NCBI GenBank assembly: GCA_052174015.1
Contig: JBQMXM010000001.1
Coordinates: 27,962-91,961 of the forward strand
Direction of reading: 5' to 3'
Source of the DNA: Clostridium sp.
GTDB lineage: Bacteria > Bacillota > Clostridia > TANB77 > CAG-508
DNA length: 64,000 nucleotides
Of this stretch, positions 2,572 through 64,000 are shown in pieces; position 1 is the stretch's first letter; every line of letters begins with the position of its first letter. Both the position numbers and the translations under genes were made by a program. The notes under the pieces were generated by a model that made no database searches, had not been told where the DNA came from, and was given only the letters and a program-made list of their open reading frames with translations.

Positions 2572-2631
2572 TTTTAAATTTTCCTTTCATATTAAATTAT
2601 TAATTATTAATTATTAGTTATATATTTTAAC

Positions 2632-4275
2632 CTACATATTATTACCCCTTGATACTAATGGATAAATATTATGTGCTAAAAGTTTTATTTCTTCTATAAA
2701 TTTTTTAGGATATCCTGCAAGTTCAAACTTACATTGAATAATTTGTTCTAAATATTTTTGATATGCCATTAAATTAAATGGAATTGAAAATACATTTACA
2801 TTTTCTCTATTAAATAATGATATTCTTTCTTGCATAGTTGGACTATTATACATAGATATACCTCCAACTATTTGTTTTTTAGTTAATCCTCTAACTCCTA
2901 CTTCCTTATTTAAAACTATATTTATTTTTTCATCTGTTAATATATTTCTTAATTTTAATCCTTTTAAAAATTCTGTTAATGGTTGAATTGTAAGGATGTC
3001 TAATGATTGTACAAGATATATTTCTTTTGCTAATTGAAAATATTCAAGTTCTGTTTCAAAATCTGAATCTATTAATATAACTGTATGATTCTTATATAAT
3101 GTATTTATAACATTATATGGTGAAACTTCTAATTTCATTCCTCCAGGTACTGAAGTATATACTGTTAAATTATTATCTACTTGTATGCCTTGTGCTATGC
3201 CTTTATCTAATTTTAATATAGATATTTGAGCGATTTGTTTTAATCTCTCATCACTATTTGTAGACATATAGTATGAATTCTTATTTTTTGTAACATCTAA
3301 TATTGCTGTATTTATTCCTAATTTTGAAAACAATACTGCAATTGTATTTACTAAAAATGATACTCCATTTTTAGTTGTTCCTACAAATATTACTGCTTTC
3401 TTATTTTGATAATTTAAACTCCCTGTGTCATATCTCATTTTAGATACATTATTTTGCGTTTGTACAACATTTGGCTTTATTTCTTTTACTGCACTTACTA
3501 CACTCTGTTTTTCAACTGGTTGCTCTACAACTTTTGATACTATTTCTTTTTGCACTATAGCTCTATCTTGTTCTACAGTTTTAACATTTGAATTATTAAA
3601 TCTTTTTACAATTTCATTTTCATTTCTTAATACTGTTTGAACTTGTATAGGTAACTTGTTTAAAATATATTTTAATTCTTCATCATTATATTGTGTTGCT
3701 ATCTTATTAAATATTTCTGAATATTTATTAACTTTTTCTATATTTTTTTGATAAAAATCTAAAATACTTTTTAATTGTATCTTAGGTATTGCGCCTTCTT
3801 CTTCACTAATTATTCTTTCTTTTTCTACTACATTAATATTATAATACATCTTTGCTTCTTGTGAAGTTCTTGGTTTTTTTAACAAGTTACATACATTAGT
3901 TATTTTTCTATCTTTACCTATCAAAGCATTGTATATACCTATTTTAAATAGTTGTTCTAAAAATTGTTCTCCAAAATTCCTATTTTCTTTAGTTATTAAA
4001 ACTACAGGTATAATTTGTTCATTTTTGTTTATAGAAATATCAGTTATCTTATCTAAAATGGAAATTAAATTTTTATCATGTTTATCATTAGAAATTTCTT
4101 CTAAATTTTCATCTAATACTATTACATCATAATCTTTTACTGTTTCCAATTCTTTTATAACTGAATTATAATAATATACATTTTTGTATATTAATACTTC
4201 ATTATTAAGTTTTTGATATTTATTAATAACTAATTCTGATATTTTTTCACTGCTTACTGCAAATAATACTTTCAT
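2632..4275 (-). CDS. Receiver-like N-terminal domain plus MinD/ParA-like C-terminal domain with a degenerate Walker A (TadZ/CpaE-like architecture, probably a pseudo-ATPase)
   Basis: N-terminal region VLFAVSSEK...DVIVLDENLE is CheY-like. The C-terminal region KAVIFVGTTKNGVSFLVNTIA...VILIDSD is ParA-fold-like, but GKS/T is replaced by GVS. Start placed at the ATG at 4275 (AAAGGATGG RBS); it overlaps the stop of the upstream gene (TAATG). Confidence 0.45.
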   Translation of the reverse strand: MKVLFAVSSEKISELVINKYQKLNNEVLIYKNVYYYNSVIKELETVKDYDVIVLDENLEEISNDKHDKNLISILDKITDISINKNEQIIPVVLITKENRNFGEQFLEQLFKIGIYNALIGKDRKITNVCNLLKKPRTSQEAKMYYNINVVEKERIISEEEGAIPKIQLKSILDFYQKNIEKVNKYSEIFNKIATQYNDEELKYILNKLPIQVQTVLRNENEIVKRFNNSNVKTVEQDRAIVQKEIVSKVVEQPVEKQSVVSAVKEIKPNVVQTQNNVSKMRYDTGSLNYQNKKAVIFVGTTKNGVSFLVNTIAVLFSKLGINTAILDVTKNKNSYYMSTNSDERLKQIAQISILKLDKGIAQGIQVDNNLTVYTSVPGGMKLEVSPYNVINTLYKNHTVILIDSDFETELEYFQLAKEIYLVQSLDILTIQPLTEFLKGLKLRNILTDEKINIVLNKEVGVRGLTKKQIVGGISMYNSPTMQERISLFNRENVNVFSIPFNLMAYQKYLEQIIQCKFELAGYPKKFIEEIKLLAHNIYPLVSRGNNM

Positions 4276-4865
4276 TAATTTATCCATCCTTTAGTAATTA
4301 TAGTAAATATTAATGGTAGAATTTCAATTACTGCAAAAATAGCTAATATCATAACTCTTTTTTTTCTGCTATTTTTCATACTTTCTTCATCATCTCTAAA
4401 GATTTTATCATGTGAGAAACTAATAATTAACAATATTATTGTTAGTGGTATAAATATAAATGCTAATATTTTTAATATATATAATATTATTGCAAGCCAT
4501 ATTTTACCATTGTATTTTTCTTTTAAATTTTCTAAATCTGTAATTGCATTTTGTCCAAATATAGATAATTTTGTTTTTTTGTTTTCAATATTATTTTTTA
4601 TTTTATTATTTATTTGTTCACCTTGTTTATTTATTTGATTTGTTGCATTATTATTTTGATTATTCTTTTTATTTGAATCTCCTAAATCAAATATCTTAGT
4701 TCCAAAGTTCTTATTTATATCTACATTTTCTTGATTTCCTTTTAGTCTAATATCATCTCCAAAAACATTAGGAATATCTACATTTGTTGCTTTAACTATT
4801 AAAGTAGTATTTAATATACAAAAAAATACAATTAATAATATACTAATTTTTTTAATATTTTTCAC
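4275..4865 (-). CDS. Hypothetical envelope protein: N-terminal signal peptide/TM and C-terminal double TM, Asn-rich
   Basis: 196 aa. N-terminal hydrophobic segment ISILLIVFFCILNTTLIVKA, with two predicted TM helices near the C-terminus. GTG start with a GAGAGG RBS. Translationally coupled to the downstream gene. Confidence 0.45.
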   Translation of the reverse strand: MKNIKKISILLIVFFCILNTTLIVKATNVDIPNVFGDDIRLKGNQENVDINKNFGTKIFDLGDSNKKNNQNNNATNQINKQGEQINNKIKNNIENKKTKLSIFGQNAITDLENLKEKYNGKIWLAIILYILKILAFIFIPLTIILLIISFSHDKIFRDDEESMKNSRKKRVMILAIFAVIEILPLIFTIITKGWIN

Positions 4866-5060
4866 TTATTACCTCTCTATCTTCTTTTTATTATTTAAAA
4901 TTATTTTTCTACCTATTTACTATATATTTTCTTTTGTATATATTACTTTAATTATACTTACAATCCTATATTTTTTCAACTAATTTTATATATTAATTAC
5001 AAATACTTAATAATAAAAAGAGGAATCTTTAGATTCCTCTTGCCTCTACTCTATATATTA

Positions 5061-5915
5061 TTAATTTTTCTTAATTTTTCCTATTAATAATTTTCCTGAT
5101 TTTTCTACAACTTCTAAATTATAATTTGTTTCTGTATAGTTTGATACATCTTCTTTTGATAGTTTAGGACTCCATCCATCTCTATATCTTACATTTACTG
5201 TATATGTTTTTACTCCATTTTCTTCTTTTAATTCACCTTTAGTTATAGTAACATCATATACTCCTGCACCTGTTGGTTGTTCTATTTTAACTAAATCTTC
5301 TTTAGAATAATATTCTAAATTTTTTAATGATATTCCGTTTACAAATGTTTTTTCACTTGCTGCTTTTAATTGAGCACCTTTTACATATATTGAATTATCA
5401 TCTCCAGCTTTTAAATATTTTTTTGCATCTTTAGATAATTGATTTGCTCTGAATTTTCTAACATTGTTTAATTCAACTGTTATTGCTGCTTTTGTTGAAT
5501 CTGAAAGTTCTTTATATGATTTACCAGCTTTTTCTGCTTCTGTACTTATATATAAGTCAACTAATTTTCTTTGTTCTTTTTTAAATATATTATTTGCTAT
5601 TTTTGCTTTTTCTACATTATTTATTGCTCTTGGTTGAGTAGTTTTGGCTTTTTGGTTATCTTCTTTTTTGTTTTCTTCTTGTTTATTTTCTTCTTGTTTT
5701 GCTTCTCTTAATTTTTTAAGTTCTGCTAAATTTTTTTCATTTTGTTCTTGTACTTTTTGTAAATGAAGTTTTGTTTGACTTTCTATTTTTTTAATTTCTT
5801 TTATTTTTAAACTAGCTGTTAATTGTAATACTCCTATTAATATTATTAATAACACTATTAAAGTATATAAAAATACTTTGATTTTATCTTTTTTTGGCTT
5901 GTTATTTTCTTCCAT
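5061..5915 (-). CDS. Hypothetical membrane-anchored coiled-coil protein with a C-terminal beta-rich domain
   Basis: 284 aa. N-terminal TM helix, then a Lys/Glu-rich coiled-coil segment, then a Gly/Val/Tyr/Thr-rich C-terminal domain. Strong GGAGG RBS. First gene of an apparent four-gene operon. Confidence 0.5.
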   Translation of the reverse strand: MEENNKPKKDKIKVFLYTLIVLLIILIGVLQLTASLKIKEIKKIESQTKLHLQKVQEQNEKNLAELKKLREAKQEENKQEENKKEDNQKAKTTQPRAINNVEKAKIANNIFKKEQRKLVDLYISTEAEKAGKSYKELSDSTKAAITVELNNVRKFRANQLSKDAKKYLKAGDDNSIYVKGAQLKAASEKTFVNGISLKNLEYYSKEDLVKIEQPTGAGVYDVTITKGELKEENGVKTYTVNVRYRDGWSPKLSKEDVSNYTETNYNLEVVEKSGKLLIGKIKKN

Positions 5916-6201: not shown

Positions 6202-7458
6202 ATGAACTATACACCAATTAATAATGTTTTAGGAATAATTTGTGAATATAATCCATTTCATAATGGACATTTATCACATATAGAAAAAAGTAAAAAATTA
6301 ACTAATGCAACTCATACTATTGCTTTAATGAGTGGAAATTTTACTCAAAGAAGTGAACCTGCAATTATTGATAAATGGTCTAGAGCTGAAATGGCTATTT
6401 TAAATGGTGTTGATTTAGTTATTGAATTACCTAATATATTTGCAACTGCTTCTGCAGAAGATTTTGCATATGGTGCAATCAAAATATTTAAGGAATTAAA
6501 AATTGTATCTAAGCTTTCTTTTGGTAGTGAATGTGGAGATATTAAAAAGTTAGAAAATTTAGCAGACCTATTTTTAATTCAACCTGAAGAATTTATGTAC
6601 CATTTAGAAAATGCTTTATCTACGGGGGCATCATATCCGTCAGCTTTATCTAAAGCTACGGATTTAACATTAAAAAGTAAGATATATAGTGATATTTTAA
6701 ATAATCCTAATAATGTTTTAGGGATAGAATATATTAAACAAATCAAACAACAAAACTTTCCAGTTACTGCAATTACAATTAAAAGAAATGAACCACATAA
6801 TACTGATGATGTTGCTACTATAGGTAATATCTCAAGTGGAAGTAGAATTAGAAAAGCAATTATACAAAATGAAGAGTTTAAACAAAGTATCCCACAAAAT
6901 GTATACAATATATTATTAAATAATTTAAAATATATAACTACATCTTCATTAAAACCTTTTGAATCTATACTCTTCTATAATATATTAACAATGAGTTTAG
7001 AAGAACTTGCAAATACACAAGATGTTTCTGAAGGTTTAGAAAATCGTATTAAAAAAGCAGCATTTATTTCTAAAAACTATGAAGAACTAGTATCAAATAT
7101 TAAATCTAAAAGATATACTGAAAGTAAGGTTCGTCGTATTCTTTTAAATATATTACTTAAAACTACTAAAAAAGATATGCATACTGCAAAATCAAGTAAA
7201 CCATATATACGAGTTTTAGGATTTAATAACAAAGGTAAAGACTTAATTAAGTTAATAGCTGAAAACAATCCTAAATTGGATATTATTGTATCTGTAGCAA
7301 GTTTTGAAAAAGAAAATATAAACAAATCAAAGTCAAGAATATTTAACAAAGATATATTAGCAACAGACCTTTATTCTCTTTCTACTACTCCATATTTACC
7401 TATAAAGTTAGACTATACTCAAAAGGTTGTATACATAAATAATGATAAAAACTCATAA
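6202..7458 (+). CDS. tmcAL: tRNA(Met) cytidine acetate ligase TmcAL (YlbM-like nucleotidyltransferase)
   Basis: N-terminus GIICEYNPFHNGHLSHI matches TmcAL/YlbM. AAGGAG RBS 7 nt upstream of the ATG. Confidence 0.8.
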   Translation: MNYTPINNVLGIICEYNPFHNGHLSHIEKSKKLTNATHTIALMSGNFTQRSEPAIIDKWSRAEMAILNGVDLVIELPNIFATASAEDFAYGAIKIFKELKIVSKLSFGSECGDIKKLENLADLFLIQPEEFMYHLENALSTGASYPSALSKATDLTLKSKIYSDILNNPNNVLGIEYIKQIKQQNFPVTAITIKRNEPHNTDDVATIGNISSGSRIRKAIIQNEEFKQSIPQNVYNILLNNLKYITTSSLKPFESILFYNILTMSLEELANTQDVSEGLENRIKKAAFISKNYEELVSNIKSKRYTESKVRRILLNILLKTTKKDMHTAKSSKPYIRVLGFNNKGKDLIKLIAENNPKLDIIVSVASFEKENINKSKSRIFNKDILATDLYSLSTTPYLPIKLDYTQKVVYINNDKNS

Positions 7459-7534
7459 GTTACAATAATTTTTATACAATTTAATCATAATTTAAAAAAC
7501 AATAAATAAATATTAAATATATACATAAATAAAT

Positions 7535-7600
7535 AAAGAAAAGAAAAGAAAAGAAAAGAATAGAAAAGAAAAGAATAGAATAGAATAAAATTAAATTAAA
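7535..7600. repeat. Simple A-rich pentamer repeat (AAAGA/AATAG units) ending in gaatagaatagaat-aaattaaattaaa
   Basis: aaagaaaagaaaagaaaagaaaagaatagaaaagaaaagaatagaatagaataaaattaaattaaa read directly in the sequence. The 3' part recurs at 59034-59078. Confidence 0.7.
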
Positions 7601-7602
7601 AA

Positions 7603-7636
7603 GAAAATGTACAAAAATACATTTTCTTTTAATTTT
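7603..7636. terminator. Bidirectional intrinsic terminator between convergent tmcAL (+) and the pilin-like gene (-)
   Basis: Stem gaaaatgta/tacattttc with a 6-nt loop, flanked by an A-run 5' and a T-run 3'. Confidence 0.6.
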
Positions 7637-7772
7637 GTTTGTATATATATTTACATTATTTTAATCTTTTATCTTCCATTGTCCTGCACTTACTTTCTCT
7701 ATCATACTTCCATCTAAATGTACTACAGGTCTTAAAAAATTACTAGGATTATCCTCATCCATAAGATCATCT

Positions 7773-9035
7773 TCAAATATAACGAAAGCTCCGAGCAGGA
7801 GTTAAGCAAACCCCACTACAATGAGCAACACTAAAAAACCTATTATTGTGTATGCCATTAATATAACGAAAAGCCATCCAATATTCATTATCCTTAAATA
7901 TATGTCCTTTTAACTTTTCCTTACTTTCTTTCACCTTTGAATCTGTTACTAAATCCTTATCATATTGTTCTTCCGTATTAGTTATACTATAAGATTTACT
8001 ATCAAATCCTTTTTTATCTGCACTAAGTCCATTTTCTTGTGTGCTACTTATTGTTAGATAATATGTTTCTGGACATCTAGTTATTGGATTCATATAGTAT
8101 TTTTCAAATCCTTTTTTTTCATCTTCTGTAAAATCTGAGTATTGTTCACCTTTCATTATCTTAACTATATCTTCCATAGTCATACTTCTTGCACCAGAAC
8201 CAGTTAATGTTCTCATTTGGACTTCTTCTGTATACTTATTACCTATTTGATATGTTGTTGTAATTTTTTTAGCCCCTTTTCCATGTCCATACACGCTACA
8301 CGCTTTATGTAATTCTTCTTCTGCATATAACCAACCTGTTCCACCTTTAAGTGTAAACTTATTATTTTCTCCACCTACTATATCTCCTATAGGTTCTTTT
8401 GAGATTACTTTTATTTGATTATTAGCAGTAGATATAACTACCCATTCATTATTAGTATTTTTAGCTGTTACAGTTTGAGTGCCATATCTATTACCACCTG
8501 TTTGTACTGTACCTTCTTGACTTGTATATGTTAGTTTACTGTTATCAGTTACTCCCTTTGTTGGGTCATAATAAACTATATCTCCAATCTTTAAATCTAT
8601 AGGTGCTATCGGCGTAGTTGTTTGAGTTTCCGCTTGCCCTATTGATTTTCTTTTTATTATACCATTATCTATTTCATAATCTACTGTATATTCATCATGT
8701 TTTGTTTTAAATTTTAGTAATTTTCCATTTTCTTCTACATTTATTTCTCCTTCTAAACCTATACCTTGTTTATCTAATTCATCTTTAAAAGTAACTTTAT
8801 TAAATTTTCCATCTTTATTTGTAAAACTTGCACTATATGCTGTCATTATTCTGTCTTTTTCTTGTGCTATTTCTTGCTCTTGCTTACTTTCTCTTGACTT
8901 AAATATTAATCCATTTTGCCCAAGTGCTAAACTAAGTGCTACTCCTGCAAGTATTAGTAATACTATTATTGTAAGTACTAATGCAATTAGTGTTATACCA
9001 TTATTTGTATTATCATTTTTCTTTTGTTTATACAT
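7773..9035 (-). CDS. Large (420 aa) prepilin-type N-terminal domain protein (pilin/pseudopilin-like) with a non-canonical +5 residue (Ala instead of Glu)
   Basis: The N-terminus KKNDNTNNGITLIALVLTIIVLLILAG is a class III (type IV prepilin-like) signal, G|ITLIALV. The C-terminal 18 aa are encoded by an atypical GC-rich patch. AGGAG RBS. Confidence 0.55.
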   Translation of the reverse strand: MYKQKKNDNTNNGITLIALVLTIIVLLILAGVALSLALGQNGLIFKSRESKQEQEIAQEKDRIMTAYSASFTNKDGKFNKVTFKDELDKQGIGLEGEINVEENGKLLKFKTKHDEYTVDYEIDNGIIKRKSIGQAETQTTTPIAPIDLKIGDIVYYDPTKGVTDNSKLTYTSQEGTVQTGGNRYGTQTVTAKNTNNEWVVISTANNQIKVISKEPIGDIVGGENNKFTLKGGTGWLYAEEELHKACSVYGHGKGAKKITTTYQIGNKYTEEVQMRTLTGSGARSMTMEDIVKIMKGEQYSDFTEDEKKGFEKYYMNPITRCPETYYLTISSTQENGLSADKKGFDSKSYSITNTEEQYDKDLVTDSKVKESKEKLKGHIFKDNEYWMAFRYINGIHNNRFFSVAHCSGVCLTPARSFRYI

Positions 9036-10771: not shown

Positions 10772-12181
10772 CTATTTATTAATTATATTTATAATATCAT
10801 ATATCTTAGAATCATTTATTCTTTCAAATATATGTAAATTATTAACTATCTCTCTTTTATTTTTCTTATTTTTTTCTCTTGTACCTAATACTTTCTTAAT
10901 TCCATTATATATATCTTCTTCTGTATTTTCAAATATATGTATATTACTATATTTTTGTACTGCTTCTATTGATGCTGTTTTTGTTATTAATATTTCTTTT
11001 CTTAAAACTTTTGCTTCATCTATAACTATACCATATCCTTCTACTTTTGATAATAGTGCAAAATAGTTTCCATTTTTAATATATGGATATGGATTTGAAA
11101 TTTCTCCAACAAGTCTAAATGAATGTTTTAATTTTCTTTTTTTAGTCTCATTAATTAATCTTTCTCTATCTATTCCATCTCCAATTACATATATATTATG
11201 TATAAATCCATCTTTTATTAATCTTTCATGTACATCAAGTAATCTATCTATTCCTTTTTCTGGAATTATTTTAGCAACTGTTACTATACTTGTAATTGTT
11301 GGTGTTATTTCTTCTGGAATATATTCTTCTGAAAGCTCTTTTATCCTTTTTATATCTAAATACTTATATATAACATGCATAGACACTTTATCTTCTATTT
11401 TATCACCAAATTCTTTTAAAAAGTTTTCTTTAGCTGTATTACTTACAAATATTATATCATTATATTTTAAATAAGTTATTCTATCTATAACTTTTTTTAA
11501 TAATTCATATTTTGTTGTTATTACACTATCTTGTTGTTTAGCTACAATTTTACTTGCTCCAAAATGTACCCATGCTATTTTTTTAGCTCTACTTTCTAAT
11601 GCAAACATTTTAGTCATAATTCCTTCTACAAATGCTATCTCTACATCATATATATTTTTTATATTTGCAGTATATATAACTGGATAAAAAATATATAATA
11701 ACAACATCTGTATTTTTTTTGTAAAAAGTGTTTTAGGTTCTTTTTTGAATATTGTTTTTAAAGTTATTTTTTTGTCTAGTACTAATTGTTGCAATTCTTT
11801 TTCAAATGTTCCATTCCCATATATTGTATAAATAGTTACATCATATGCATTATATATTTTTTTAACTAAATCTACTAATGCTCTTTCTGCTCCACCTATT
11901 TTTAATGAATTTATTCCAAATACAACTCTTTTCTTCTTATTTTTATTTCTATATTTTATATGTTTATATAAATTTATTAATGCAATTAATATTAATAAAC
12001 ATATAAATACACAACTTATAATAAATAGGAAACTTAATTCTTGATATCTATCCTTATTTATTGTTAATCTCAATATAATTAATGATAATATAATTATTGG
12101 TATTAATTGTAAAATTATTTTTATAAATTTACATATAATTTTTAAAAATCTATTCATTATTTCTTTAATTTTTTCTATCAT
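10772..12181 (-). CDS. Family 4 (GT-B) glycosyltransferase with an N-terminal membrane region
   Basis: Two N-terminal TM helices, then GINSLKIGGAERALVDLVKKI, the GT4 N-terminal signature. Confidence 0.65.
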   Translation of the reverse strand: MIEKIKEIMNRFLKIICKFIKIILQLIPIIILSLIILRLTINKDRYQELSFLFIISCVFICLLILIALINLYKHIKYRNKNKKKRVVFGINSLKIGGAERALVDLVKKIYNAYDVTIYTIYGNGTFEKELQQLVLDKKITLKTIFKKEPKTLFTKKIQMLLLYIFYPVIYTANIKNIYDVEIAFVEGIMTKMFALESRAKKIAWVHFGASKIVAKQQDSVITTKYELLKKVIDRITYLKYNDIIFVSNTAKENFLKEFGDKIEDKVSMHVIYKYLDIKRIKELSEEYIPEEITPTITSIVTVAKIIPEKGIDRLLDVHERLIKDGFIHNIYVIGDGIDRERLINETKKRKLKHSFRLVGEISNPYPYIKNGNYFALLSKVEGYGIVIDEAKVLRKEILITKTASIEAVQKYSNIHIFENTEEDIYNGIKKVLGTREKNKKNKREIVNNLHIFERINDSKIYDIINIINK

Positions 12182-12223
12182 TTTATCTCCTAGATTATAT
12201 AAATATTAATATTAATATTAACA

Positions 12224-13675
12224 TTAACATATAAATGTTGAATCTATTTTTAATTTTTTAGCTAATTGTATATCACTTTTTGATATTACTTTACTTGAAT
12301 GTAATCTTGCATATTTAAAAATAGGTAATTCCTGAATTGCTTTTTTGTATATTTCATTTTTATCTTGTAATATAGCAAATGCTAATATACAATCTACGGC
12401 CTCTATTTTTTGACTTTCTATATCTTCTGTTTGCTTTTTGTATTTTAAAATATTTTCTATCATTTTACTGCAAAACAGAGTATCTTTTTCTAAATTCAAC
12501 TTATTTTCTAATACATTTAATATACAAATTGCAAATGCAGATATATTATCTTGTTCTATTCCTACAAATTCTTCTCCATTTTCTAATAATATTAAACAAT
12601 TATCATTATTATTTATACTTTTTTCTTTATCTACTTTTGCTACAACTTCATCTTCAAATATATCAATTTGTGCTTTATTTAAAAGTCTTTTTAATAATTG
12701 TGGTTGATTTGTATCTCCATTTTCATATTTTTCTTCGTATACTGCTTTTAAATATCTACGGATAATCTCTATTTTAGATGCCTTTATTACAATTTCATCT
12801 GATGAAATACAATCTCCGGCATAATTTACTCCCATATCTGTAGGTGAATTATATATTCTTTCTCCATATATTTTTGTTAATAATGTATCTAATATTGGAA
12901 ATAATTCTACATCCCTATTATAGCTTGTTGCAATTTTATTATATTTTGATAAATACATAGGGTCTATCATAACTTTATCTTCTAAATCAGCTGTTGCCGC
13001 TTCATATGCAATATTTACCATATGTTCTACTGGTAAATTCCAAATTGGAAATAATTCTAATTTTGCATACCCTGATTTTATACCTTTTTTTGAATCTAAA
13101 TATAGTTGTGATAAACATGTAGACATTTTTCCACTACTTGGACCTGGACCTATAACTAAAACAATATCTCTTTTTGTTTCTATATATTCATTTTGTCCTA
13201 ATCCTTCTTCTGACACTACATAATCTACATCATATGGATATCCTGATATTTTTTTATGTGTATATATCTTTATCCCCTTATTTTTAGCTTCTGATATAAA
13301 TTTATCTGTATTTGGTGTTTTTTCGTATTGATTAATTACTATTGAATTTATTAAAATCCCTCTTTTTTCTAAACTATTGATAATATTAAAAGTCTCATCA
13401 CTATATGTTAAACCTTTATCTTGTCTAACCTTATTACTTTCTATTGCTTTTTGTCCAACAGTAACTATAACTTCTATTTCATTTTTTAAACTTTCAAGAA
13501 TCCTAATCTTGTTATCTGGTATAAATCCTGGTAATACTCTTTTTGCATGCAAATCATCTAATAATTTACCACCTACTTCTAAATATAGTTTACCTTCAAA
13601 TTTTTCTTTTCTTTCAAGTATTCCTTTTTTTTCTAATTCAATATATTTATCATTTAAAAATCCTATTTTTTTCAT
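12224..13675 (-). CDS. DUF1846 / UPF0371 family protein
   Basis: 483 aa. N-terminus MKKIGFLNDKYIELEKKGILER...GKLYLEVGGKLLDDLHAKRVLPGF resembles the UPF0371 N-terminus as I recall it. Confidence 0.55.
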   Translation of the reverse strand: MKKIGFLNDKYIELEKKGILERKEKFEGKLYLEVGGKLLDDLHAKRVLPGFIPDNKIRILESLKNEIEVIVTVGQKAIESNKVRQDKGLTYSDETFNIINSLEKRGILINSIVINQYEKTPNTDKFISEAKNKGIKIYTHKKISGYPYDVDYVVSEEGLGQNEYIETKRDIVLVIGPGPSSGKMSTCLSQLYLDSKKGIKSGYAKLELFPIWNLPVEHMVNIAYEAATADLEDKVMIDPMYLSKYNKIATSYNRDVELFPILDTLLTKIYGERIYNSPTDMGVNYAGDCISSDEIVIKASKIEIIRRYLKAVYEEKYENGDTNQPQLLKRLLNKAQIDIFEDEVVAKVDKEKSINNNDNCLILLENGEEFVGIEQDNISAFAICILNVLENKLNLEKDTLFCSKMIENILKYKKQTEDIESQKIEAVDCILAFAILQDKNEIYKKAIQELPIFKYARLHSSKVISKSDIQLAKKLKIDSTFIC

Positions 13676-27916: not shown

Positions 27917-29731
27917 TTATTTTCCTTTCATAATTGCTTCAAATTCTTCTCCAGTTATTTTTTCTCTATCTATTAGTACTTTTGCTACTTCATGTAGTTT
28001 ATCTATATTTTGTGTTAGTATTTCTCTTCCTACTTCATATGCTTTATCTATAATCAATTTAACTTCTCTATCTATATTACCTGCTGTTTCTTCGCTAAAT
28101 GTTTTATGTTGTGCAATATCTCTACCTAAAAATACTTCATCTTGACCTTGTTTAAAACATATTGTACCTATTACAGGACTCATACCATATTTTGTTACCA
28201 TATCTTGTGCTATTTTTGTTACTCTTTCTATATCATTTGATGCACCTGTTGAAACATCTACAAGTACTATGTCTTCTGCAAGTCTTCCCCCAAGTAATCC
28301 TATTAATTGTTCTTCCATTTCTTTTTTAGATAAGAATGATTTATCTTCTCCTGATTTATACATTGTATATCCACCTGCCATTCCACGTGGCACTATAGAT
28401 ATTTCATGTACTTTATCTTGTGTTGGTAAAAAGTATGATACTACAGCATGTCCAGCTTCATGATATGATACTAGTTTTCTTTCTTTTTTACTCATAACTC
28501 TGCTTTTCTTTTCAGGACCCATAGTTACTTTTATCATTGCTTGTTCTATATCTTTTGTAGTAATATAGTCTTTTTCTTCTCTTGCTGCAAGTAACGCTGA
28601 TTCATTTAATACATTTTCTAAATCTGCTCCTGAAAATCCTGCTGTATTTTTAGCTATAACTTCAAGTTCTACATCTGCTCCTAATTTTTTACCTTTAGCA
28701 TGTACTTTTAATATTTCTAATCTTGCATTTTTATCAGGCATTGATACTACTATTTGTCTGTCAAATCTTCCTGCTCTAAGTAATGCTGTATCTAATACAT
28801 CTGGCCTATTAGTTGCAGCCATAACAATTACACCTTCATTTTTAGAAAATCCATCCATTTCTACTAATAATTGATTTAATGTTTGTTCTCTTTCATCATG
28901 ACCACCACCAAGTCCTGCTCCACGTTGACGTCCAACTGCATCTATCTCGTCTATAAATAATATACATGGAGAGTTCTTTTTAGCTTCTTGAAACATTTCT
29001 CTTACTCTTTTTGCTCCAACTCCTACATACATTTCAACAAAGTCAGAACCTGATATTGTAAAAAATGGAACTCCTGCTTCTCCAGCTACTGCTTTTGCAA
29101 GCAATGTTTTACCTGTTCCTGGTCTTCCTACTAAAAGTACTCCTTTTGGTATTCTTGCTCCCATATCTATATATTTTTGTGGATTTTTTAAGAAATCTAC
29201 AATTTCTTTTAATTCTTCTTTTTCTTCTTCTATACCTGCAACATTATCAAATACTACTTCTGGATCTTCTTCATTATCCATTCTTCTTGCTTTGCTCTTT
29301 CCAAAAGTTATATCTTTAGCCATTTCTTGTCTTTTTCCATTCATAGCTAACATATTTAAAATTAAAAATAGTATTAATAATCCTAATATTGTTGGAATTA
29401 TATACATTGCTGTTTTTAAAACTTTTTTATAGCTTGGTTCGTCTTTTTTATATACTTCAATCTTATTTTCTGTGATTTCACCTTTTATTTCATCTAAAAA
29501 TGAATTTACACTTGGAATATTTGCCCTATATGTATTTCCATCTTTCATATATTTTAATGAATTATTATCAGATTCTATCTCTATTTTTTTAACTTGACCA
29601 CTTTTAACATTTTTTAATGCCTCTGTATAATTAACAGTTTTTTCTCCATACATATTTAGATAACTTGTTATAGTTATTATTACTGATAAAATTAATGTCC
29701 ATATTATTAATGTTTTAATTGTTTTTTTCAT
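27917..29731 (-). CDS. ftsH: ATP-dependent zinc metalloprotease FtsH
   Basis: Two TM helices, Walker A GPPGTGKT, Walker B ILFIDEID, the SRH motif, and the zinc-binding HEAGHA. Confidence 0.93.
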
Positions 29732-29757: not shown

Positions 29758-30225
29758 TTAATTCATTTGTGCTTTAAATACAGAAATATATCCTGAAATA
29801 CTATTACCTGTCAATTTAGAAAATAATTCTTGAAATTTCCCATTAAAATATTCTCTATATTCTTCTTTTGCTTTTTCACTTATCTTATTATCTTCAAAAA
29901 ATATCTCTAATGTCCTATTAATACAATATGCTTCAAATTTTGCTTCAAAATCTGATTCAGATATTTCTTCTATTTTTTCATCATAAAATTTACCACTATC
30001 TTTAGCTTCATTTAGTGCTTTTTGAATTGATTGCATATATACTTGTTCTGAATTAGCTAAATCTGACTTTTTTAGTGTTTGTTCTGTATTTTTTAAAATA
30101 TTAATGTCTTCTTTTTCGTATGCTTTTTGAATAACTATTGCAAGTACTGTTGCAAGTACTAAAATAATGATTACTAGTATACCTATTGTTATACCATTGT
30201 TATTTTTAACTTTTATATATTTCAT
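29758..30225 (-). CDS. Prepilin-type N-terminal domain protein (pilin/pseudopilin-like), 155 aa
   Basis: N-terminus KVKNNNGITIGILVIIILVLATVLAIV is a class III signal-like segment. Last of four tandem paralogs. Confidence 0.5.
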   Translation of the reverse strand: MKYIKVKNNNGITIGILVIIILVLATVLAIVIQKAYEKEDINILKNTEQTLKKSDLANSEQVYMQSIQKALNEAKDSGKFYDEKIEEISESDFEAKFEAYCINRTLEIFFEDNKISEKAKEEYREYFNGKFQELFSKLTGNSISGYISVFKAQMN

Positions 30226-30266
30226 ATTTATTCCTTTATATATTATTTAATTTATACTATTCTCTT

Positions 30267-30680
30267 TTACATTAACTCTACATCATATTCATATATAGTT
30301 TGTTTTTTTTCATCTTTTATAATATATTTTTTATCTATTTTTTCTACTGTATATTTTAATTTTTCTTTTGCCATTTTTTCTTCAAATTCTTTTTTTACAA
30401 GTTGAAATATTTTTTCTTCTATCTCCTCATCTGCTTTTGCATTTGACATTACTATATCATACTTTCTATGATATATATCTAAAAATATATCTTCTATTTG
30501 CTTATTATTATATTTTTGTTTTTGTGATATTGTTGAATTTAATAATTCATTATTATTTGTAGATAAATTAATAACTACACCTGCAATTATTGTTAATATT
30601 ATTATTGTAAGTACTAATAATATCATTGTTATACCATTATTGCTTTTTAACTTGTATTTCAATACATTATTTGATAACAT
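30267..30680 (-). CDS. Prepilin-type N-terminal domain protein (pilin/pseudopilin-like), 137 aa
   Basis: N-terminus KLKSNNGITMILLVLTIIILTIIAGVV. Confidence 0.5.
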   Translation of the reverse strand: MLSNNVLKYKLKSNNGITMILLVLTIIILTIIAGVVINLSTNNNELLNSTISQKQKYNNKQIEDIFLDIYHRKYDIVMSNAKADEEIEEKIFQLVKKEFEEKMAKEKLKYTVEKIDKKYIIKDEKKQTIYEYDVELM

Positions 30681-30693
30681 TCATATCCCTTTC

Positions 30694-31116
30694 CTATTTC
30701 ATAATTTCTTTTATTTCAATTTCTTTTTCAATCTTTTTATCTTTACCCCTATGTAAAGTCATAATTATTGATTTTGTTTCATCAGAATATCTTAAATCTC
30801 TTAAATACTCACCATCTTTTTTTTCTGCAAAAAAACGAAACTCTCTATATACTTCAATTATTTTTTCCCCTACTTCTTTTTCAGTAATTCCAGTATCTTC
30901 TGTAAGAAGATTTAATTCTAAATATATTCTTTTAATTTCTTGTTTTACCTGTATTTCTTCTATCTCATCAATTGTTTTTTGTGCTTCTTTTACATTTTTA
31001 TTTCCATCTCTACTAATATATATATATGATACCATTGATACTATTATTGATAATGTTAAAATTGTAATTACTAAAGTAACTAAAGTTATACCTTGATTTT
31101 TCTTAAAATCTATCAT
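30694..31116 (-). CDS. Prepilin-type N-terminal domain protein (pilin/pseudopilin-like), 140 aa
   Basis: N-terminus FKKNQGITLVTLVITILTLSIIV. Overlaps the upstream paralog by 4 nt (ATGA). Confidence 0.5.
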   Translation of the reverse strand: MIDFKKNQGITLVTLVITILTLSIIVSMVSYIYISRDGNKNVKEAQKTIDEIEEIQVKQEIKRIYLELNLLTEDTGITEKEVGEKIIEVYREFRFFAEKKDGEYLRDLRYSDETKSIIMTLHRGKDKKIEKEIEIKEIMK

Positions 31117-31640
31117 ACTTTCTCCTTTAAACGAAATATTGGTTCTTTGTTTTCTCTATCATGATATGCATATACAGGCCCTAAATAATACGCTTTTCTA
31201 ATTTTTAAATCATATACTATGAAACTATAAACTGTAACATTTACTCCATACATTTTTATTTTACGTCTATTTGGTATTTCTTTTAAATTAAATTGAGAAA
31301 TATGCACTATACTGTCATCAAATTCCCTTATATCATGATGCTTAGCAGCATATTCATTATACCTTGCTTTCATTTGTCCTGAGATTGTTGTTCCATATAT
31401 ATTTAAATCATATATACTATTAGATAATATTTTTTCTTCCATTGCTGATTCTACATATTCCAATGTTGAAAGCAATTCTTGTTTTTGCTGTTCTCTAATA
31501 TAATCTAAAGAAAATGTAGTTACTGTACCTGCTATTATAGATAACAATATTATTATTGTAATTAAAGTTGTAAGTACTACACCATTTTTTTTATTTATAT
31601 TTTTCATATTATTATTAAATCCTAATCCTATTTTTTTCAT
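31113..31640 (-). CDS. Prepilin-type N-terminal domain protein (pilin/pseudopilin-like), 175 aa
   Basis: N-terminus NKKNGVVLTTLITIIILLSIIAGTV. AAAGGAAAA RBS. First gene of the four-gene cluster. Confidence 0.5.
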   Translation of the reverse strand: MKKIGLGFNNNMKNINKKNGVVLTTLITIIILLSIIAGTVTTFSLDYIREQQKQELLSTLEYVESAMEEKILSNSIYDLNIYGTTISGQMKARYNEYAAKHHDIREFDDSIVHISQFNLKEIPNRRKIKMYGVNVTVYSFIVYDLKIRKAYYLGPVYAYHDRENKEPIFRLKEKV

Positions 31641-31742
31641 ATTTTTCCTTTGTAAAGTTATATATAATATAATAATATACTTTAATAAATATTTTGTAAA
31701 TACTTTAACCTTAATTGAATATTAAAAGATATATTATAGGGG

Positions 31743-31771
31743 TTGACAAATGTTAAAAAATGTTATATTAT
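31743..31771 (+). promoter_or_regulatory. Sigma-A-type promoter for a stand-alone small RNA
   Basis: TTGACA at 31743-31748 and a TATATT/TATTAT -10 element 15-17 nt downstream with a TG extension. No protein-coding gene follows on the plus strand. Confidence 0.5.
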
Positions 31772-31775
31772 GTTT

Positions 31776-31945
31776 ATGTAAACCGTAAGAGGTTACGTTA
31801 TGCTTAATCAGAAGGAGGGTTGGTATCCTACTTCGAAGAAACTCCCCTAAAAAAGGTTTAAAACTTAGTTTTCTCCATAACAATATATTTATTCAAGCTA
31901 GGGGAGAATTTTAAGAAGGATGTTATTAACATCCTTCTTTTTCTT
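31776..31945 (+). ncRNA. Candidate ~170-nt small RNA of unassigned class (6S-like length; no obvious SRP or tmRNA motifs)
   Basis: The transcript is bounded by a consensus promoter and an intrinsic terminator (gaaggatgtt/aacatccttc followed by a T-run at 31915-31945). It is locally GC-enriched (ccgtaagaggttacg, cagaaggagggttgg, ctcccct...aggggag pairing) and lies between two minus-strand genes. Confidence 0.45.
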
Positions 31946-32040
31946 TATCTCTTTTTTTTCTATATTTTTTCTTTGTTCTTTATATTTTTACTTTTGTTTT
32001 ATTCTTTATTTTATAATTATATTTTATCTTCAATCATTTA

Positions 32041-33366
32041 TTATTCAAAATCAAATGGATTTTGTGAACCGAAGAAATTACGAATATTATTATTCTCTTG
32101 CTTTTGTTGAGTTTGATTTTCCTGTTTTTGTTGTTGTTGAATATTTTTGTTTTGTTCTTGAGTATTTGTAGTATTATTTGGAGATACTTGCATTTTCATT
32201 TTAACTGTTTGTTTCTTTCCACCTCTTATATATTCAACATCTACTAATTGATTAATTTGAACATTATTTTTTTCATTATTTATATCTGCAACTGTTGTAA
32301 CTTCTTTATTATTAAATTTAGTAATAATATCTCCTTTTTTAAGTCCACTATTTGCAGCAGATGAATTTGCAATTACTTCACTTACATATACTCCACTCTT
32401 TATATTTAAAACTTCTGCCATTTCTTTTGTTATTTCTTTTCCCATAATACCTAAAGATGGTCTTTCAACTTTTTTATTCTTAATTAGTTGTTCTGTTATT
32501 TTTTTAGTTTGATTTATTGGAATAGAAAATCCTATACCTTCAACTCCATTTCCTGCAAATTTAAGTGTATTAATACCTATAACTTCTCCATGTCTATTTA
32601 CTAAAGCTCCCCCACTATTTCCTTCATTTATTGAAGCATCTGTTTGAATTGATGTAAATGTTTTTCCATCTTGTAATTCTATTTTACGATTTATCGCACT
32701 TATAATTCCAGCAGTAACTGTACTTTTAAGTCCTAATGGGCTACCAATTGCCATTGCAAATTCCCCAATTTTTACATTGTCTGAGTTACCAAGTGTTGCT
32801 GGAACTAGATTATCTTTTTTAACTTTAATTACTGCTAAATCTGTTTGTTCATCTGTACCTACAATTTCTCCTTGTACTTTAGTATCATCATTAAATGTAA
32901 CTGTAATACTTTTAGCTTCTGTTATTGAGAAAAATGAGTTATTATTTTTTGGATTAACAACATGATTATTAGTTAAGATATATCCATCTTTAGATATTAT
33001 TATACCTGAACCTGAAGCTTTTGCTACTCCACTTTGAAATGGACTAGATACAGTATATTCAATAGAAATACCAACAATAGATGGTAATACTTTAGCAGCT
33101 ACTCCTTCTGATGTTTTTGAATATTCTTCTAAATTAACTAAGTTATTATTATTATTATTTGTTTGTGTATTATTAGGTTTATATGATAATTTTTGAGCTA
33201 TATCTTTAAAACCTAATCCTAACCACATTGATGATATTATCATCACAACTATTATTAATAATAATATGATTATCACTAAAATTGGTCTTCTTTTTTTATC
33301 AGAAGCTCCAAATTTTTTAAAATCATTTTCTTTACTGAAATTAAATTCATTATTTTTTTCTGACAT
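32041..33366 (-). CDS. htrA: HtrA/DegP-family serine protease with an N-terminal TM anchor and C-terminal PDZ domain
   Basis: Catalytic triad context (TNNHVV, D in the DLAVIKV region, GNSGGALVN), a PDZ domain, and a Gln/Asn-rich C-terminal tail. Confidence 0.9.
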   Translation of the reverse strand: MSEKNNEFNFSKENDFKKFGASDKKRRPILVIIILLLIIVVMIISSMWLGLGFKDIAQKLSYKPNNTQTNNNNNNLVNLEEYSKTSEGVAAKVLPSIVGISIEYTVSSPFQSGVAKASGSGIIISKDGYILTNNHVVNPKNNNSFFSITEAKSITVTFNDDTKVQGEIVGTDEQTDLAVIKVKKDNLVPATLGNSDNVKIGEFAMAIGSPLGLKSTVTAGIISAINRKIELQDGKTFTSIQTDASINEGNSGGALVNRHGEVIGINTLKFAGNGVEGIGFSIPINQTKKITEQLIKNKKVERPSLGIMGKEITKEMAEVLNIKSGVYVSEVIANSSAANSGLKKGDIITKFNNKEVTTVADINNEKNNVQINQLVDVEYIRGGKKQTVKMKMQVSPNNTTNTQEQNKNIQQQQKQENQTQQKQENNNIRNFFGSQNPFDFE

Positions 33367-58071: not shown

Positions 58072-58812
58072 TTATTTAACAATTATATAATATTTAATCT
58101 TAGAATATTTAGCTTCACCTATTCCTTTAACCTCTTTAATTTCTTCAATACTATTAAATTTACCATGTTCTTTCCTATATTCTATTATCTTATCTGCCAT
58201 TTGTTCTCCAATTCCATTTATCTTTATTAAATCTTCTTTACTCCCCTTATTAATATCCACTTTCTTTTTTATACTACTATTTTTATTTCCACTTTGAGCA
58301 TTACTTTTAGTATTATTTCCATAACTAATATTCCTATTTGCACTAGAAACATTTGTATTTGCACCTTTGTCTTCTTCAGATATTTGATTATTAAACATAT
58401 CCACATCATCTTTACCTTCTTTATCATCTACTGATGGAATATATATTTTTTCTCCATCAGCTACTTTTAAAGCAAAGTTTATTAATTTAATATTAGCTTT
58501 TTCTGTAAGTCCTCCTGCTTTATCTATTACTTCTTTTAATCTTGCTCCTTCAACAACTTCATACAAACCTGGTTTTTTTATCATACCATCTAAATGTACA
58601 TAAATATTCTTACTATCTACTTCTTCTTTTTCTTGTTTTTGCATCATTGCTACATCTATATTTTCTTCTACATTTTTCATATTTTTTGTAAAATAACTAT
58701 ATATTCCAAATATTAATATAAATAAAAGAATTCCACCTATTATTAAATATTCTTTATCTATCTTTTTCAACTTTAAAAATATATTATGTATAGTTCTTTT
58801 TATTTTATACAT
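58072..58812 (-). CDS. comEA: Competence protein ComEA-like DNA receptor (TM + SLBB + helix-hairpin-helix)
   Basis: N-terminal TM helix, SLBB-like IYVHLDGMIKKPGLYEVVEGARLKEVIDKAGG, C-terminal HhH INGIGEQMADKII...VKGIGEAKYSKI. Confidence 0.8.
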   Translation of the reverse strand: MYKIKRTIHNIFLKLKKIDKEYLIIGGILLFILIFGIYSYFTKNMKNVEENIDVAMMQKQEKEEVDSKNIYVHLDGMIKKPGLYEVVEGARLKEVIDKAGGLTEKANIKLINFALKVADGEKIYIPSVDDKEGKDDVDMFNNQISEEDKGANTNVSSANRNISYGNNTKSNAQSGNKNSSIKKKVDINKGSKEDLIKINGIGEQMADKIIEYRKEHGKFNSIEEIKEVKGIGEAKYSKIKYYIIVK

Positions 58813-63698: not shown

Positions 63699-64000
63699 TT
63701 ATATATTTATTATTTCCATTCTATCTGTGTAAATTACTAATAATGTATTACTATTAATTTTAAAATCTTTTACTTCTTTACTTCCTTTGTATCTTTTCTT
63801 TTCCCAACCATTTAAATTTATTATTTGAATTTCTGTTCCTGTATTTATAGCAACTAAATCTTTAAATACTTTAATTTCTTTTGGTGAATTTTCTCCTAAA
63901 TTGTATTTTGAAAGCTCTTTACCATATTCTGATAGTATTTTTAATTCATAATTAGATTTAAATAAATTTACATTTTCTTTTTTTAATACTACTATCCCTA
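63699..64000 (-). CDS. 3' end of a gene whose start lies beyond the window (C-terminal 99 codons; product unknown)
   Basis: Open frame on the minus strand from the window edge to the TAA at 63699-63701; my hand translation ends ...LLVIYTDRMEIINI. Confidence 0.3.
   Translation of the reverse strand, partial: GIVVLKKENVNLFKSNYELKILSEYGKELSKYNLGENSPKEIKVFKDLVAINTGTEIQIINLNGWEKKRYKGSKEVKDFKINSNTLLVIYTDRMEIINI

Follow-up and report, generated by a model that had tools for sequence, protein, structure and literature searches.

Few surface machines of prokaryotes are as widespread as type IV filaments. Their bacterial pilins have a short leader, mostly basic or polar, whose last residue is Gly (or Ala/Ser) and falls within about 35 residues of the N-terminus, an acidic residue at +5 (Glu, rarely Asp) and a fold in which a long N-terminal α-helix packs against an antiparallel β-sheet. 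The glutamate at +5, Glu5, is described as absolutely conserved in bacterial type IV pili (PMC10710030), and the only subunits known to lack it are tip subunits, the tip being capped by GspK and its equivalents (PMC10191384). The PilFind rule asks for a run of at least 14 consecutive uncharged residues behind the cleavage motif, only one transmembrane segment, located at the N-terminus, a length below 350 aa and [DE] at +5 (PMC3244431). Three described systems invite comparison with the locus considered here. The minor pilin sets, namely GspH-I-J-K of type II secretion, PilHIJK of T4aP and ComGD-GG of the Com pilus, are small tandem genes, often translationally coupled, whose products have class III-type N-termini and include at least one member devoid of Glu5 (GspK). 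Archaeal type IV pilins (Pilin_N, PF07790) have no conserved Glu5; their -1 residue is Gly or Ala, and a hydrophobic helix comes next. A charged residue at -2 is typical of archaeal sites (FlaFind). Finally, modular type IV pilins such as PilB and PilC of Streptococcus sanguinis (Raynaud et al. 2021) are composed of a small N-terminal pilin module, a linker and a grafted additional domain at the C-terminus (PMC8179133).

The cluster described here comprises four small neighbouring genes of an uncultured, very AT-rich (23% G+C) oral Clostridium-like bacterium, and lies in a stretch of 64,000 nucleotides, the window, that was analysed as a whole. The genes, designated P4, P3, P2 and P1 in their order within the cluster, are co-oriented on the minus strand and flanked by htrA and ftsH (Table 1). 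A preliminary description had reported four consecutive pilin-like open reading frames with an ATGA overlap between two of them; all four are present, and the overlap is confined to the P4/P3 pair, the other intergenic gaps measuring 13 and 41 nt. Taken together, the overlap and the short gaps suggest that the four genes are co-expressed. Each is preceded by a Shine-Dalgarno-like sequence, and the predicted promoter upstream of P4 is likely to be the start of a four-gene transcription unit; the 130 nt around it are identical in the sister species. A search of Rfam with the whole window and with the intergenic region upstream of P4 returned nothing beyond one tRNA-Met.

Table 1. Features of the window, with positions counted from its first nucleotide
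Feature	Position	Strand	Description
P4	31113-31640	-	175 aa; opens the cluster; basic leader of 19 aa before Gly20; VVLTT follows
P3	30694-31116	-	140 aa; start overlaps P4 stop (ATGA); leader MIDFKKNQG, then ITLVT
P2	30267-30680	-	137 aa; leader ...KLKSNNG, then ITMIL; Ala17-Gly18 as in the family
P1	29758-30225	-	155 aa; last gene; leader MKYIKVKNNNG, then ITIGI; 26 nt to ftsH
Promoter-like site TTTACA-17-TATTAT	31672..31700	-	Consensus scan only; ~30 nt upstream of P4 start
420-aa modular pilin-like protein	7773..9035	-	Leader-Gly-ITLIAL; frameshifted copy of the ~455-aa family
Out-of-frame remnant	7661..7801	-	Encodes the family's normal C-terminus, ...FLRPVVHLDGSMIEKVSAGQWKIKD followed by a stop; paralogue alignment, three-frame translation
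ComEA	58072-58812		27 kb from the cluster

The N-termini are the most telling part of the four proteins. Each has a short leader of 8–19 residues, mostly basic or polar with K/N, followed by Gly (residue 20, 9, 16 and 11 in P4, P3, P2 and P1) and then by a hydrophobic segment. Counting the first residue after this Gly as +1, the junctions read ...NKKNG/VVLTTLITIIILLSIIAGTVTTFSL in P4, ...KKNQG/ITLVTLVITILTLSIIVSMVSYIYIS in P3, ...KSNNG/ITMILLVLTIIILTIIAGVVINLST in P2 and ...VKNNNG/ITIGILVIIILVLATVLAIVIQ in P1. The motif G-(I/V)-T-(L/M/I), which had been ascribed to all four, holds for P3, P2 and P1, but P4 has G-V-V-L. The claim that none carries Glu at +5 is borne out, and Asp is equally absent, although the residues given for this position (G, I, T or T) had been miscounted: they are Thr, Thr, Leu and Ile in P4, P3, P2 and P1. 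An acidic residue at +5 is also the only element of the PilFind rule that P1–P4 lack, since 25, 26, 28 and 22 uncharged residues follow the Gly in P4, P3, P2 and P1, each protein has one N-terminal hydrophobic segment and all are well within 350 aa (137–175 aa). A regular-expression scan for the motif in the six frames of the window retrieved only the five pilin-like genes, these four and the longer one considered below, and two open reading frames that are not pilin-like. The assignment of these N-termini to the prepilin type (class III-like), without Glu5, is supported.

The fifth gene encodes a 420-aa protein with the same N-terminus (NNG/ITLIALVLTIIVLLILAGV; Gly at residue 13 and Ala at +5), as had been recorded. 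Its description as a single distant homologue requires correction: it belongs to a family of ~455-aa paralogues, of which this MAG has at least 13 copies, and is itself truncated by a frameshift. The ACTTGJ_ locus tags of the MAG point to a total of 850 genes or more. The frameshift in the open reading frame is deduced from the out-of-frame remnant (Table 1), and a sequencing error is possible. The AlphaFold model of the 420-aa protein consists of an N-terminal pilin-fold module (residues ~1–135), a low-confidence linker (136–141) and a C-terminal domain of ~270 aa (150–420) with pLDDT >95, putatively a binding domain. In a structure search the modelled N-terminal module of the family gives pilin matches, the best of them being GspK. 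The architecture is that of modular pilins and, as in these, the length exceeds the PilFind limit of 350 aa. Modular pilins were found via the IPR012902 motif (PMC8179133), and its Pfam counterpart PF07963 matches the 420-aa protein at 13.7 bits, below the cut-off of 21.2, and P1–P4 not at all. Across the family α1N is nearly invariant and the remainder shows ~30% identity; most members have G at -1, with A in its place in one subgroup, and E or D at +5 is encountered in none of the 146 motif matches in the family loci retrieved.

The N-termini of P1–P4 are homologous to this module with a pilin fold. In hhalign comparisons with the family profile all four align in register on the family N-terminus with 91–98% probability, and the register includes the Gly as well as, for P2 and P4, Ala17-Gly18. 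With profile A2 the probability is 98% for P2 (E 8.7e-14, residues 7–67), 91% for P4 (residues 11–45) and 91% for P1. The homology of P3 to the family extends into the soluble helix, up to residue 85, and P3 amounts to the N-terminal pilin module of the family standing by itself.

These comparisons bear directly on a different reading, according to which P1–P4 have no kinship with pilins: they would be small bitopic membrane proteins, such as envelope or division factors sharing a transcript with ftsH, and would resemble pilins only through the composition of an I/L/K/N-rich genome of 23% G+C. The extreme AT-richness of the genome, the inflation of profile–profile scores by hydrophobic segments and the position of the cluster between htrA and ftsH, 26 nt ahead of the latter, all agree with it, as does the fold search with the model of P3, the one small protein modelled, which has moderate confidence and gave results non-specific for pilins. 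Yet the junction [NQ]-G-[IV]-[TV]-[LMI] is absent from 11 further proteins of the window that have an N-terminal anchor, the profile matches are in register at the Gly and at Ala17-Gly18, homology continues past the anchor in P3 and P2, and a consensus scan places a promoter-like site for ftsH (11 of 12) within the 3′ end of P1. A purely compositional likeness is accordingly considered very improbable.

Beyond the N-terminus, P4 has much beta-strand-like sequence in its C-terminal part, and P1, judged from its sequence, looks mostly helical after the anchor; it is the weakest pilin case of the four.

Curated libraries place the proteins only loosely, as searches of Pfam, NCBIfam and PHROGs with all five gave sub-threshold matches only. 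Pilin_N (PF07790) matches P2 with E 0.0022 and 19.2 bits, below the cut-off of 25.2, and does not match the other three; the NCBIfam matches to GspG and PilA (E 0.04) are likewise sub-threshold. Among the Pfam and NCBIfam models for GspH/I/J/K, PilV/W/X and ComGD-GG, none matches P1–P4 above threshold. The proteins are not Tad/Flp pilins either, being 137–175 aa long as against about 50–80 aa and having no E-Y at +5/+6. When PDB sequences were searched, pilins were top for P1 and P2 with E values of only 0.26–0.45, the best pilin match of P3 was MshA (E 1.6) and P4 had no match of any kind.

A further likeness is found in pilus operons of uncultured gut Clostridia (L084, L100, L111, L121 and others). 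Metagenome loci seeded with short pilins bearing the same N-terminus display a PilMN-PilO-PilD-PilB-PilT-PilC operon around them in 49 of 80 cases, and in 18 of the 27 loci that are at least 10 kb long; one Clostridia MAG shows the same arrangement, with short Ala5 pilins inside the operon. The operon pilins, 126–168 aa in length, are preceded by PilMN/PilO and followed by a PilD-like gene, PilB, PilT and PilC lying downstream, and the residue at +5 is Ala in 47 of the 48 pilins at that operon position. A G/FTGID type of pilin, which has Asp at +5, is also seen in relatives. They share with P1–P4 a near-identical or identical leader-Gly-ITL α1N, Thr2, Ala17-Gly18 and a GxNG break after the helix. 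In L084, three pilin genes in tandem (159–168 aa, NKG/ITLIAL...) follow PilM/N and PilO-like genes; the machinery includes a PilD-like protein (A24_N_bact, 4.7e-30) devoid of a GxGD motif, PilB (T2SSE, 1.4e-93), PilT and PilC (T2SSF, 1.1e-26), and two further small pilin-like genes are located between the PilD-like gene and PilB. P2 is 36–39% identical to the operon pilins of L084 over 54–79 aa, and an operon pilin of this locus scores 20.4 bits against PF07963, just under the cut-off. The L084 operon and a canonical A24 peptidase in L057 (GLGDVKL) were found by phmmer with E. coli GspE, GspF and GspO; a motif screen for the ATPases and peptidases (GPTGSGK.., G[GM]GD.K) was too strict and came back empty in 1.2 Mb. 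P1–P4 differ from the operon pilins of the relatives in having Thr, Thr, Leu and Ile at +5 and no adjoining machinery, and in a likeness that is N-terminal only. The two small pilin-like genes of the relatives and a 156-aa operon gene were considered as orthologues of P1–P4 and rejected, as they match in α1N only. The occurrence of the same N-terminus inside the pilus operons of relatives points to a divergent class of type IV pilins and not to ComG. Resemblance to archaeal pilins has its limits too: the -2 residue of P1–P4 is N or Q, and the machinery of the relatives is bacterial (PilM/N/O, PilT, A24_N_bact).

The notion that P1–P4 are competence (Com-like) pseudopilins for DNA uptake, functional equivalents of ComGC-ComGG working with ComEA, had been put forward in the preliminary description and finds little favour here. 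A tandem of four small pilin-like genes does recall the pilin section of comG operons, the presence of ComEA in the window is confirmed, and P2 gives the sole ComG match among the four, to the ComGE model (E 0.083; 13 bits, where the cut-off is 49). ComG family models nevertheless all fall below threshold, comGA and comGB are absent beside the genes and from the window, and the N-termini group with pilins of PilMNO/PilB/PilT/PilC operons rather than with Com pilins. ComEA is not linked to the cluster, and it is common in bacteria that have not been shown to be competent. A role in DNA uptake is therefore judged improbable.

As had been observed, no PilB, PilC or PilD gene accompanies the cluster, and homologues of PilB, PilC, PilD, PilM, PilN and PilO are absent from the window and from the ~120 kb of unique sequence available for this and the sister species. 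A 551-aa protein at 2632-4287, whose sequence, by eye, suggests an N-terminus of receiver type and a region like a degenerate ParA/MinD, was considered as TadZ/CpaE-like and set aside, having no library or PDB match. Their absence from this sequence is what would be expected if the proteins were pilin-derived signal-anchors that stay uncleaved and hold small or large ectodomains at the cell surface, in a small-genome lineage that may have lost its pilus machinery. Such an origin would also accommodate the dispersal of family members, as paralogues and distant members have only housekeeping neighbours in the neighbourhoods viewed and are scattered in nearly all loci; at least 13 paralogues suggest general surface display, and the lack of Glu5 removes the canonical salt bridge used in docking. 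Should the genome lack assembly machinery, the third suggestion of the preliminary description, an uncharacterised class of surface proteins, would also be possible. However, ~120 kb is a small part of the genome, relatives embed the same N-terminus in full type IV pilus operons, and Gly or Ala at -1 together with the exact α1N is kept across distant genera, a constancy that an anchor alone would not call for. Uncleaved anchors are thus regarded as an unlikely explanation, if a more plausible one than competence.

Patterns of conservation add to this argument. Two further strains and the sister species (bins from ERZ773082 and ERZ989699) share the order of the four genes, and dN/dS against the sister species is 0.30–0.57 across the cluster, from 0.30 in P1 to 0.57 in P4: P1–P4 are real genes under purifying selection. 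Identity to the sister species is 62% in the leader, 91% from +1 to +25 and 75% in the rest; in P4, 8 of 19 leader residues are identical as against 24 of 25 in the stretch from +1 to +25. A mere membrane anchor would not require an α1N so nearly invariant. Within the species P2 varies least among the four, with 100% identity across three strains. With P4 and P2 as queries, word-based searches detected homologues confined to the same species and its sister, in human oral metagenomes, those of P4 being 75–97% identical. An exhaustive HMMER search with P3 yielded, beyond this species pair, N-terminal matches only, all to proteins sharing this N-terminus. Taken together, the searches offer no distant orthologue to learn from.

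The reading preferred here, with a probability of roughly 0.6, is that P1–P4 make up a small operon, its products being type IV pilin-like proteins that serve as a minor-pilin set and belong to a divergent class of uncultured Clostridia. Each of the four has a basic leader that ends in Gly (-1), a hydrophobic α1N starting with [IV]-[TV]-[LMI] and a non-acidic +5. The precursor of each pilin-like protein would insert in the membrane with its N-terminus inside, and the leader would be cut off after the Gly by a prepilin peptidase. A PilB/PilC-type motor would then pull the mature subunits out of the membrane, and these would join a type IV filament via their α1N helices. Within such a filament P1–P4 may act as minor pilins, for priming or at the tip, alongside the many modular pilins of the genome. 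This role is proposed in view of the small size, translational coupling and fast evolution of the four and of the lack of any machinery linked to them, and a priming or tip complex is inferred by analogy with GspHIJK/PilHIJK and ComGD-GG. P1–P4 differ from those sets in that all four members lack an acidic +5, no sequence model matches them, no machinery adjoins them and they are limited to one species pair; the likeness lies in how the genes are arranged and in the GspK match of the family module. Of the three options raised earlier, minor pilins in a divergent filament fit best. The filament part is supported by the N-terminal module, which heads the operon pilins of relatives and has a pilin-like fold, and the minor role is proposed from the features just named.

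Uncultured Clostridia possess a large unannotated class of pilin-like proteins that retain leader, Gly, Thr2 and hydrophobic helix, in no case have the acidic residue, and in relatives are physically placed in otherwise ordinary pilus operons. As the class scores under the cut-off of the curated model for pilin N-termini, surveys using that model would probably miss it, and the inventory of pili and adhesins in gut and oral Clostridia may in consequence be too low. It is tentatively suggested that a widespread clade of uncultured Clostridia, comprising animal and human gut members and this oral lineage, builds type IV filaments largely or wholly from pilins with Ala, Thr, Leu or Ile at position 5. 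If the one to three tandem Ala5 pilins of the operons are the major subunits, pili would assemble in these bacteria without the salt bridge between Glu5 and the N-terminal amine that is held to be universal in bacteria, and would provide a natural test of the purpose of Glu5. As for the oral organism itself, it would carry an unusually large repertoire of four small and at least 13 modular pilins, and the four-gene cluster, together with its modular relatives, is the best candidate for its surface adhesion apparatus.

The four pilin-like proteins, named P4, P3, P2 and P1 in the 5' to 3' order of their cluster, are encoded by four consecutive open reading frames spanning 29758-31640, as the preliminary description had proposed; all four are on the minus strand. 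The surrounding window has a G+C content of 22.7%, and its genes are nearly all housekeeping genes on the minus strand. A Shine-Dalgarno-like sequence stands in front of each of the four frames; P4 and P3 share an ATGA overlap, and the remaining intergenic gaps measure 13 and 41 nt. Gene order and lengths are kept in two further strains of the species (L006, L007) and in a sister species found in human oral metagenomes (L009-L011), with htrA and ftsH as flanking genes in every one of these loci. The four frames are genes.

Features of the window and their positions
Feature	Position	Strand	Remarks
P4	31113-31640	-	175 aa
P3	30694-31116	-	140 aa
P2	30267-30680	-	137 aa
P1	29758-30225	-	155 aa
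htrA	32041-33366		upstream of the cluster
ftsH	27917-29731		26 nt downstream of P1
Promoter-like site inside P1 3' end	29785-29814	-	11/12, TTGACA-18-TATATT
Candidate small RNA gene	31743-31948	+	between htrA and P4
its promoter-like site	31743-31771		11/12, TTGACA-17-TATTAT
its hairpin	31913-31939		perfect, 12 bp, then T-run
420-aa ORF	7773-9035	-	
Out-of-frame family C-terminus	7661-7801	-	
Run of four orphan genes	1282-5915	-	
551-aa protein of this run	2632-4287		
Right end of the window	63699-64000		P0016 follows a DUF5711 gene

A possible small RNA gene, with a promoter-like site and a hairpin that a T-run follows, lies upstream of P4, on the other strand from its neighbours. The ∼170-nt stretch between these two elements folds better than shuffled sequences (z -3.2) and holds a hairpin with compensatory changes across strains and the sister species; Rfam gave no match on either strand. 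At the other end of the cluster, ftsH may have its own promoter despite its close spacing from P1, because P1 contains a promoter-like site within its 3' end, ∼55 nt before ftsH begins. An IS-type transposase gene (DDE_Tnp_1; L009 5700-7088) separates the SH3-domain gene from htrA in the sister species, an insertion immediately upstream of the conserved cluster.

Compared with the sister species, P1-P4 show 74-82% amino-acid identity and a dN/dS of 0.30-0.57, against 0.03-0.18 for FtsH, LysS, CtpA, HtrA and the SH3-domain gene; the four proteins are thus constrained, yet evolve much faster than their annotated housekeeping neighbours. The two genes for hypothetical proteins (547 and 219 aa) on the downstream side of ftsH have values of 0.31-0.39, close to that of P1. 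Identity is distributed unevenly: 62% in the leader, 91% from +1 to +25 (+1 being the first residue after the leader glycine) and 75% in the remainder. Divergence within the species is a mosaic. Between strains (30694-31640 versus L007 473-1419) P4 and P3 differ at 15% and 11% of protein positions, with dN/dS near 0.6-0.8, and the adjoining P2 is 100% identical. This pattern is consistent with recombination, or with diversifying pressure acting on proteins that are exposed, though the substitution counts are small.

All four proteins open with a leader of 8-19 residues, after which come a glycine and 22-28 uncharged residues. The preliminary description was right that none carries Glu5, the glutamate at +5; its list of the residues there (G, I, T or T) was off by one in two cases, the true series from P4 to P1 being T, T, L and I. 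Nor does its G-x-T-x junction hold for P4, which reads G-V-V-L. A six-frame scan of the window recovered the N-terminal motif in P4-P1 and the 420-aa gene, with two more matches in frames that are not pilin-like; of 11 further window proteins with an N-terminal anchor, none has it.

When P4 and P2 served as queries in word-based searches, matches came solely from this species and the sister species. In an exhaustive HMMER search with P3 the only extra matches were proteins sharing the N-terminal ∼100 residues, which start with KG and, after the junction, ITL[IV]ALV. No Pfam, NCBIfam or PHROG family scored above threshold, and the sub-threshold library matches were pilin N-termini: Pilin_N, N_methyl, GspG, PilA and ComGE. 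A link is provided by the paralogous ∼455-aa family to which the 420-aa protein belongs. In hhalign comparisons all four proteins were placed in register with the family N-terminus, P2 with 98% probability (residues 7-67), P3 with 96% (residues 3-85) and P4 and P1 with 91% each; in local alignment the N-terminal module of the family corresponds to the entire P3.

This family is large, with 2502 relatives of the 420-aa protein at E <= 0.001. At least 13 copies among the matches listed bear the tags (ACTTGJ_) or PGAP names of this genome; a 139-kb contig of this MAG, deposited as 'Clostridium sp.' and encoding a protein identical to the 420-aa one, holds at least five, and the usual neighbours are housekeeping genes. 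The 384 relatives in species-representative genomes include 80 listed loci, almost all from uncultured Clostridia, Clostridium or Eubacteriales MAGs, the exceptions being one MAG each from Lachnospiraceae, Erysipelotrichaceae and Bacilli; record titles that name a host point to the animal or human gut. The N-terminus, K/N-G followed by ITLIALVITIIVLLILAGV..LTGxNGIL, is almost invariant, apart from a subgroup with Ala at -1. Residue +5 is Ala in 82 of 102 members scored and Glu in none; counting the 80 listed loci together with further family loci, it is Ala in 116 of 146 and acidic in 0. Against the PDB the family profile matched type IV pilins only (PilE1 at 4.8e-4, geopilin, MshA, PilA, PilA5). 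An AlphaFold model from a 69-sequence alignment (pLDDT 89) comprises helix 12-38, a break at GxNG, helices 43-69 and 80-89, four strands within 99-134, a linker and a well-predicted domain at 150-420. Foldseek returned no match. The architecture is that of the modular pilin (PMC8179133), here from a predicted model.

The copy in the window is frameshifted and truncated: just past its stop, the conserved C-terminal 46 residues of the family (...RPVVHLDGSMIEKVSAGQWKIKD) continue in another frame. Either the gene is truly truncated or a pseudogene, or the assembly contains an error here. A full-length paralogue, P0016 (449 aa, L002 11-1360), is located just beyond window position 64000. It is labelled 'type II secretion system protein'; PGAP gives this name, or 'pilus assembly FimT family protein', to some of the copies. 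Four orphan genes also follow one another in the window. In the 551-aa product, visual inspection suggests a receiver-like N-terminus together with a degenerate ParA/MinD-like region (..VIFVGTTKNGVSFLV..), and the protein has no Pfam, NCBIfam or PDB match; its gene overlaps that of a membrane protein of 196 aa. Another product, of 429 aa, shows a weak GGDEF-like match (SiaD, 1.4e-5).

As the preliminary description had noted, no machinery genes adjoin the cluster, and there are none in the whole window: homologues of GspE, GspF and GspO, and of clostridial PilMN, PilO, PilD, PilB, PilT and PilC, are absent from it and from ∼120 kb of unique sequence of this and the sister species. Relatives present a different picture. 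The operon at locus L084 encodes, in order, a PilM/PilN fusion (PF05137); a PilO-like protein and a 156-aa protein; three pilins in tandem (159-168 aa), each with NKG followed by ITLIALVITIIVLLILAGVSIAMLTGENGIL (N_methyl, 20.4 bits); a PilD-like protein (11576-12424; A24_N_bact, 4.7e-30); two 138-aa pilin-like proteins whose glycine precedes FTGID and VTLIT; and PilB (T2SSE, 1.4e-93), PilT and PilC (T2SSF, 1.1e-26). A metagenome scan seeded with the three short pilins gave 80 loci, 49 with at least one machinery gene beside the pilin; among the 27 loci that reach 10 kb, 18 had machinery matches, and longer contigs carry the full set in unchanged order. Pilins between the 156-aa and PilD-like genes have Ala at +5 in 47 of 48 cases, and between the PilD-like gene and PilB there are two pilin-like genes, one of which has Asp and the other Ser or Thr at this position. 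On the evidence of gene neighbourhood, proteins with this class of N-terminus thus truly belong to type IV pilus operons.

The PilD-like proteins of these operons (L084, L098-L172) keep the N-terminal A24_N_bact domain, and in alignment lack the GxGD motif at the position of the second catalytic Asp. At L057 a canonical A24 peptidase (GLGDVKL; 7097-7849) lies 2 kb from two family members; it is devoid of the N-terminal domain and adjoins pepP and efp.

P2 and P3 share 33-42% identity with the operon pilins across 50-79 residues; P1-P4 show no orthology to the small pilin-like genes of the operon beyond the N-terminal hydrophobic helix. Taken at sequence level, these data support P1-P4 as putative type IV pilin-like proteins of a divergent class without Glu5. 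Since they lack both an acidic +5 residue and a match to the curated N-terminal model, two defining features of the canonical family, they are classed as a variant and not as ordinary members. The suggestion of ComG-like pseudopilins is not supported, as no ComG model scored above threshold and no machinery homologue occurs in the window. With lower probability, the N-termini of P1-P4 may be simply uncleaved membrane anchors. The most economical role would be that of a minor-pilin set, because the genes form a coupled set of four that are small, fast-evolving and unlinked to machinery.

Modular pilins are already known, and automated annotation calls some family members pilin-like. The class is covered by no curated family in Pfam or NCBIfam, and a literature search did not find the motif in published papers. 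PilFind requires [GAS]-x4-[DE] (PMC3244431), and Glu5, the partner of the N-terminal amine in the following subunit, is described as conserved without exception among the type IV pili of bacteria (PMC10710030); the only subunits known to lack it are those at the tip (PMC10191384). A pilus operon whose pilins have Ala at +5 throughout is contrary to the rule of Glu5 conservation. For the window itself the finding is of moderate interest, and it would gain in interest should the Ala5 pilins turn out to be the major subunits.
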